Shown piece by piece: positions 40,936 to 41,700 of a stretch of 64,000 nucleotides of DNA. The position numbers were made by a program, and so were the translations under genes. Under the pieces are notes generated by a model. The model ran no database searches. It was given only the letters and a program-made list of their open reading frames with translations, and was not told the DNA's origin. The DNA comes from Escherichia coli (lineage in GTDB: Bacteria > Pseudomonadota > Gammaproteobacteria > Enterobacterales > Enterobacteriaceae), in the NCBI RefSeq assembly GCF_045037415.1, contig NZ_CP173438.1, one strand, 5' to 3'. How positions within the stretch are numbered: the stretch's first letter is position 1; each line of letters opens with the position of its first letter.

Positions 40936-41469
40936 GTGGATAGTAATAATAAAATTGAACCCTGTTTAAGCAGAAAATCGTCAGAAGGTAAACCACAAAT
41001 ATTTACAACCTTACGAAATATTGATCTTACCCTTCTGACTATTTTGAAGTTGCATATGTCCATAAAGGAATCGTTAATGCAGCGAAAGTGCTTAATCTGC
41101 CCCCCCTCGGCAATCTATCAGCCTATTCAGAAACTGCGCGTTATATTCCCTGACCTATTGTTTATTCGCAAAGGCCAGGGTGTCACTCCTACCGCATTTG
41201 CGATGTATCTATATGAGTCTATCACTCAGGGACTTGAGTCCATTCTTGGCGCGCTGGATATCGAAGGAAGCTATGATAAGCAACGGACGATAACTATTGC
41301 GCCCTCCCCCTCGGTCGGAGCCCTGGTCCTTCCTGTCATCTATCGGGCGATTAAAACTCACTATCCACAGCTTTTACTGCGCAACCCGCCCATCAGCGGC
41401 GCGGAAAACCAACTCAGTCAGTTTCAAACCGATCTCATCATCAATAACATGTTTTGCACGGGGTCATAG
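40936..41469 (+). pseudogene. ybeF: LysR-family regulator YbeF, C-terminally truncated remnant (177 aa vs ~317 aa expected)
   Basis: LysR-type HTH region and start of the co-inducer domain, then a stop; only 231 bp remain before lipA, too little for the rest of a LysR protein. Confidence 0.6.
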
Positions 41470-41700
41470 ATGTTATCCGTAATGCATTTTGAAAAAGTAT
41501 TGTTACAGCCAGATCACAGCGCACAACGATAAAATGGCACAATCCAACAACAATTTTACATTTTCGCGACCGCTTTGGCTGCTTTCAGGTCCGTTTCAAT
41601 GATATACTGCCAGTCGTTAATTCAAAAATAGTTGATAATTACAACAATCTATTGAATTGAAACGCTTTCCTTCGTAATTCGCAACTGGAACACGCACGCT

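Follow-up and report, generated by a model that had tools for sequence, protein, structure and literature searches.

The open reading frame between lipB and lipA in Escherichia coli ST131 as a remnant of the LysR-type gene ybeF

The 177-codon open reading frame (ORF) found between lipB and lipA in the 64,000-nucleotide stretch of Escherichia coli DNA analyzed here (the window) is very probably the remnant of a dead LysR-type gene, ybeF, which was inactivated in the ancestor of phylogroup B2 and has been drifting since. The intact counterpart in K-12 (b0629) encodes a YbeF-family LysR-type regulator (LTTR) of 317 amino acids at the same locus and on the same strand, and its GTG start and final 23 nt with the TGA recur in the window. 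Compared to this intact gene, the window allele lacks 397 bp, carries a −1/+1 pair of frameshifts that scrambles 20 codons of the helix-turn-helix (HTH) region and has 17 non-synonymous substitutions. Roughly one in five sequenced E. coli (those of the B2 lineage, ST131 among them) carries the remnant, and it is an ordinary one, already known as a pseudogene in public annotation.

The features of the locus, in window coordinates, are the following.

40035 to 40676 (+): lipB, lipoyl(octanoyl) transferase; intact ORF of 213 amino acids, named lipB in identical ST131 records
40677 to 40935 (+): lipB-ybeF spacer, 259 bp; native ybeF upstream region, with GGAG as Shine-Dalgarno sequence ahead of the GTG start
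40936 to 41492 (+): whole ybeF pseudogene remnant, native GTG to native TGA, from the alignment to intact ybeF (L002:2759-3712)
40936 to 41469 (+): 177-codon ORF with GTG start and TAG stop, from the ORF list and a comparison of the stub, repaired and K-12 translations
41042 to 41045 (+): site of the −1 frameshift, four T where the intact gene has five (alignment column 366)
41044 to 41103 (+): 20 codons out of frame, translated as LKLHMSIKESLMQRKCLICP in place of FEAVYVHKGIVNAAKVLNLT
41100 to 41106 (+): site of the +1 frameshift, a run of seven C (alignment column 425)
41455 to 41459 (+): junction of the 397-bp internal deletion, with a single TGCAC copy left, from the alignment to K-12
41467 to 41469 (+): TAG stop arising from the frame change after the deletion, from sequence and translation
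41470 to 41492 (+): native ybeF 3' end (codons for DVIRNAF plus TGA), out of frame; 23 nt identical to L002:3690-3712
41493 to 41700 (+): ybeF-lipA spacer, 208 bp (lipA upstream region), identical to the K-12-like genome at 207 of 208 positions
41701 to 42666 (+): lipA, lipoyl synthase; intact ORF of 321 amino acids

The window, ST131 and K-12-like genomes all have the gene order dacA-ybeD-lipB-ybeF-lipA-tatE, and the remnant is orthologous by descent to ybeF, as judged by its location between lipB and lipA, its strand and an identity of 95 to 96% over the retained sequence. A preliminary description of this DNA had already taken the ORF for a truncated ybeF, and both the locus and the alignment to the K-12-type gene bear this out. 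The layout that it gave also holds: the ORF of 177 amino acids lies between lipB and lipA at 40936 to 41469 (+), and 231 bp separate its stop from the lipA start at 41701, a distance made up of the 23 nt of native ybeF 3' end and the usual 208-bp spacer. The lipB-ybeF spacer had been said to match that of K-12, and its length is 259 bp in the window and 258 bp in the K-12-like genome, the window having an additional T in a T run (window position 40891, alignment column 215). The size of about 317 amino acids proposed for the intact orthologue is exactly that found in the K-12-like genome.

The two neighboring genes are well preserved. Relative to K-12, lipB shows one non-synonymous and seven synonymous changes, and lipA shows none and seven, respectively, with the same protein accession (WP_000042632.1) in both ST131 and K-12-like records. 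The lipB-ybeF spacer (40677 to 40935) is unusually diverged from K-12 (13 of 233 positions, 5.6%), in contrast to about 1% in the flanking genes and 1 of 208 positions in the ybeF-lipA spacer. A scan of this upstream spacer for sigma-70-like promoters gave two weak matches that were not above chance when compared to shuffled sequence. No terminator-like site and no Rfam match were found in the ybeF-lipA spacer (41493 to 41700), and an Rfam scan of positions 40500 to 41900 at an E value of ≤1 likewise gave no match. Another element hidden in the remnant or the spacers was considered and rejected, given the lack of Rfam matches and terminator-like sites and promoter-like matches at the level of shuffled sequence.

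The deaminated glutathione amidase gene ybeM (window 43098 to 43892, minus strand) is an intact ORF of 264 codons in the window and in ST131 records and is annotated as a frameshifted pseudogene in the K-12-like comparison genome (L002:5319-6106), the reverse of the ybeF case. Near ybeL, the annotation of EC958 (L010:4278-4743) contains a ybeQ pseudogene fragment with an internal stop and a missing N terminus, together with a partial hypothetical protein pseudogene; this annotation comes from EC958 rather than from the window, where the segment would map to approximately 26277 to 26742.

The lesions were defined against the K-12-like chromosome (L002), in which ybeF is intact (317 amino acids), by alignment with window positions 40677 to 41700. 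The lipB-lipA interval measures 1420 bp in the former and 1024 bp in the latter. Three lesions were found inside ybeF, a −1, a +1 and the 397-bp deletion, and all of them disrupt the frame of the intact orthologues, as expected of a pseudogene. The added C brings the frame back 58 bp downstream from the loss of the T. The C run at 41100 to 41106 contains seven C in the window, six in other B2 alleles and an A plus five C in K-12, and among the nine alleles aligned the additional C (column 425) is confined to the window and ST131 strain 2017_APHA. As for the deletion, its ends in K-12 read ATGTTT-TGCAC-CAATCG and CCATCC-TGCAC-GGAGTA and lie 397 bp apart. The loss, which the preliminary description had left as either internal or C-terminal, is thus internal and bounded by TGCAC repeats (5 bp of microhomology), and it removes codons 176 to about 307.

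The reading frame of the window allele follows from these three changes. Residues 1 to 36 are native, residues 37 to 56 are out of frame and residues 57 to 175 are again in the native frame, after which come Gly, Ser and the stop. The 177 codons are open because the +1 C offsets the −1 T, so that reading continues to the deletion junction, and since 397 is 3n+1, the frame shifts again past that point and reaches the TAG at 41467 to 41469. In place of the uninterrupted frame of about 300 amino acids of an LTTR, the window has 177 codons, including 20 out-of-frame ones, versus 317 amino acids in the orthologue.

In the history of the remnant, an out-of-frame deletion of 397 bp between TGCAC pentamers took about two thirds of the effector-binding domain, a loss whose flanking repeats fit the pattern typical of replication slippage or microhomology-mediated deletion, and a 1-bp loss in the T run broke the frame within the winged HTH. 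Both lesions are present in every B2-type allele examined, apart from one mosaic allele that does not have the frameshift. Later, in the ST131 lineage, a chance gain of 1 bp in the C run reopened the frame and produced the 177-amino-acid “stub.” A homopolymer slip is the simpler reading of this added C, although selection for it is possible in principle.

To evaluate how widespread the allele is, counts were taken among 5426 complete E. coli genomes. A 46-mer across the deletion junction was found in 1049 of them (556 at ≥99% identity) and the 397-bp segment deleted here in 4373; the two figures sum to 5422, indicating that the two alleles are complementary. The 1024-bp interval was present at ≥99% identity in 561 genomes, and about 560 genomes carry this exact allele. 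The preliminary description had allowed that the short form might turn out to be the common allele. It is indeed far from strain specific, as these counts indicate, but the deleted segment is still retained by the majority given above. In Salmonella, Klebsiella and Enterobacter, too, ybeF has its place between lipB and lipA (PMC4398509), and its intact presence at that position in these genera indicates that the long form is ancestral.

The 20 kb from 30000 to 50000 of the window recruited 1026 genomes at ≥99% identity and matched numerous ST131 chromosomes at 100.0% identity, among them EC958, JJ1886 and several labeled O25b:H4-ST131; judged by this identity, the DNA of the window belongs to ST131. 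Among the carriers of a more diverged junction are E2348/69, F11 and an O18:H1 strain, which we take to be classical strains of phylogroup B2. The number of genomes with the 20-kb region is close to that of genomes with the junction. From these strain identities and counts we infer that the junction-bearing genomes are those of phylogroup B2.

Two of the three lesions (T4 and C7) are located in homopolymer runs, which are prone to error on certain sequencing platforms, and the short ORF could in that case be a sequencing or assembly artifact caused by homopolymer errors or a collapsed region. However, the identical 1024-bp allele was recovered in hundreds of independently sequenced complete genomes, EC958 and JJ1886 among them, and the exact 177-amino-acid protein is found on at least 1000 contigs, which leaves an artifact with hardly any probability.

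The nine ybeF alleles aligned, each translated from the native start, showed that the remnant has kept decaying in sister B2 lineages. The 397-bp deletion was present in all eight short alleles, and the −1 T in all of them except that of Mali strain 200164. The remnants of E2348/69, KE41, MP1, ChlosBP-23-1 and MS1657 have both the deletion with its TGCAC junction and the −1 T in common with the window but lack the +1 C, and their native-start ORFs are only 14 to 118 codons long. In MS1657 the missing +1 C makes the ORF end after 118 codons, and there is an extra 3-bp deletion. The other four lack another 204 bp, lost between two CCCCCTCGG direct repeats, and in E2348/69 codon 15 is, in addition, a TAG. 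The 204-bp deletion corresponds to positions 41100 to 41303 of the window (L004:709-1029, L008:859-1179, L006 and L007). A query from inside this segment had no match in 391 of the 5424 genomes with the locus, and from this absence about 391 of the 5426 genomes would carry the 204-bp deletion. In ST131 strain S1-KEN-05-A (NZ_CP145689.1, 3458810-3460609), an IS1 family transposase gene is annotated in the lipB-lipA interval, which is about 776 bp longer than window 40677 to 41700, the allele being otherwise identical. Taken together, the 204-bp and 3-bp deletions, the nonsense codon and the IS1 represent independent further decay in relatives, as is characteristic of pseudogenes.

The allele of Mali strain 200164 (NZ_CM128590.1, L005:505-1029) is a rare one in which the 397-bp deletion of B2 type is joined to a 5' part that is intact and K-12-like. 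It has no frameshift and a native HTH, and its 177-amino-acid product is of native sequence. Along alignment columns 235 to 640, 3 of 405 positions (0.7%) separate it from K-12 and 20 of 401 (5%) from the B2 allele of MS1657, while its flanks are B2-like (5 differences in 619 positions from MS1657 and 21 in 618 from K-12). By this distribution of differences, a patch recombined from a non-B2 donor seems more likely than an ancestral intermediate. Its use to tell which of the deletion and the −1 frameshift came first was rejected because the allele, the only one to have one of these two lesions alone, is mosaic.

Selective constraint was evaluated by Nei-Gojobori counts in the ancestral frame. 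Between the window and K-12, the remnant has accumulated 17 non-synonymous and 10 synonymous changes (omega of 0.51), and between the window and the Mali allele 20 and 7, respectively (omega of 0.89), the latter value being only indicative given the mosaic nature of that allele. Over the same comparison with K-12, dacA, ybeD, lipB and lipA together show 1 non-synonymous and 31 synonymous changes, with an omega of about 0.03 or less. The contrast between the remnant and the four flanking genes is clear even if the counts are small (Fisher P = 4e-7), and constraint is relaxed relative to the neighboring genes, again with small counts. By these substitution patterns the remnant evolves with no detectable constraint.

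The preliminary description had assigned to the ORF an HTH region and the first part of the effector domain, and had suggested that a retained DNA-binding domain could still occupy its operator. The HTH region is not encoded intact, and a retained DNA-binding domain is not supported. The intact YbeF matches Pfam HTH_1 (PF00126) with 54.1 bits over residues 31 to 89 (profile positions 1 to 59), while the stub reaches only 16.7 bits over residues 56 to 89 (profile positions 26 to 59 of 60), below the gathering cutoff of 26.6 bits; with profile positions 1 to 25 lost, no winged HTH is recognized at the score demanded of an LTTR. Likewise, LysR_substrate (PF03466) matches the intact protein with 61 bits over residues 116 to 316, whereas it gave no match at an E value of ≤1 in the stub, where only residues 116 to 175 of the effector domain survive.

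Among solved structures, DntR (1uth) is the nearest relative of intact YbeF and aligns to its residues 24 to 284 with an E value of 7e-19, and the HTH region of the DntR/NahR-type LTTRs (PDB 1uth, 1utb and 2uye) is clearly homologous to that of the intact protein. Unlike them, the product of the window is devoid of the first half of the HTH and of most of the effector domain; the comparison with DntR therefore applies to the ancestral gene alone. In the alignment of intact YbeF to 1uth, the 20 scrambled codons fall opposite DntR FNQLLLDRSVSTAGEKLGLT. Going by the known layout of the winged HTH in LTTRs, they presumably cover helix 1 in its C-terminal half, helix 2 and the turn that leads to the recognition helix. 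The latter stays in frame but has SAIYQPIQ where K-12 has SAISQSIQ, a gain of a Tyr and a Pro (S62Y and S64P). With half of the HTH scrambled, the HTH_1 score below the cutoff and these two residues in the recognition helix, no folded HTH is expected, and judging from the translated sequence a folded DNA-binding domain in the stub product is very unlikely.

The native start codon, the Shine-Dalgarno sequence and the upstream region are preserved in the remnant, so that, as far as these sequences indicate, it may possibly be transcribed and translated. The stub could then be imagined as a functional truncated regulator, a DNA-binding-only or dominant-negative LysR fragment that occupies the YbeF operator. 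There are in fact 177 codons open from the native start with its Shine-Dalgarno sequence, residues 57 to 175 (including the recognition helix, wing and linker helix) are in the native frame, and in ST131 the frame has been restored by a second frameshift. However, unrelated sequence has replaced the C-terminal half of helix 1, helix 2 and the turn, HTH_1 is matched under its cutoff and from profile position 26 onward only, and the recognition helix carries the two substitutions mentioned above. A dominant-negative fragment would, in addition, have no full-length partner present to poison. An omega of 0.5 to 0.9, versus about 0.03 in the neighboring genes, and the greater losses in sister B2 lineages (the 204-bp deletion and the nonsense codon 15), where nothing points to constraint, also argue against a function, and we consider a working stub very improbable. 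The reading of the ORF as the remnant of a dead gene implies that its product, if made, would have no foldable HTH, 60 of about 200 residues of the effector domain and no expected function.

Public annotation already agrees with the remnant being a pseudogene. In genomes identical to the window, PGAP labels the locus [quoted passage not shown] and RefSeq/PGAP marks all of the aligned short alleles as pseudogenes. The RefSeq pseudogene of ST131 strain EC958 (EC958_RS03180), with equivalents in JJ1886, USVAST219 and 2017_APHA, is identical in sequence to the window allele. Some GenBank records nevertheless carry the 177-amino-acid ORF as a coding sequence for a “LysR family transcriptional regulator” (e.g., BAI54108.1). 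A literature search for ybeF as a pseudogene found no paper on the B2 allele.

What may have been lost with YbeF is suggested by the work in K-12, where deletion of ybeF changed the expression of 67 genes, with lrhA down 3.5-fold and the FlhDC iModulon up (PMC9068703). In the same study, ChIP-exo gave three YbeF peaks, binding at lrhA was neither detected nor predicted, and the authors suggested that YbeF is linked to flagella, as well as to citrate lyase on the grounds of gene clustering (PMC9068703). In ST131, dpiAB and the citrate lyase genes adjoining the locus are intact.

With this background, the loss of ybeF in the B2 ancestor might have been adaptive, by rewiring targets influenced by YbeF, the remnant itself being inert. 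The deletion is found in every genome examined with a B2-type allele (1049 in all) and repair is rare; even the one mosaic allele with a K-12-like 5' part still has the deletion, and in the K-12 mutant lrhA drops and the FlhDC iModulon rises. However, inheritance by a whole clade is equally expected from a neutral loss in a single ancestor, and many lineage-specific pseudogenes show the same pattern. The three ChIP-exo peaks, with no predicted DNA-binding site and no binding at lrhA (PMC9068703), also speak against it, and we regard an adaptive loss as unlikely. Slightly less likely still is the wider proposal that the loss of YbeF was not neutral and shaped B2/ExPEC traits, for instance through lower lrhA and higher FlhDC-dependent motility, with the reopened ST131 frame perhaps yielding a small protein with a residual role.

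As a gene inactivated in the B2 ancestor and left to drift, the ybeF remnant is by itself of little importance. Expression of lipA and lipB need not be affected, and with the lipA upstream region unchanged nothing suggests that lipoate synthesis would be altered. The 177-codon “LysR regulator” of ST131 is an accident of two offsetting homopolymer frameshifts and has no place in a count of transcription factors. All of phylogroup B2 lacks YbeF, a K-12 regulator that is itself poorly characterized, and this matters when K-12 regulatory networks are carried over to ExPEC strains.
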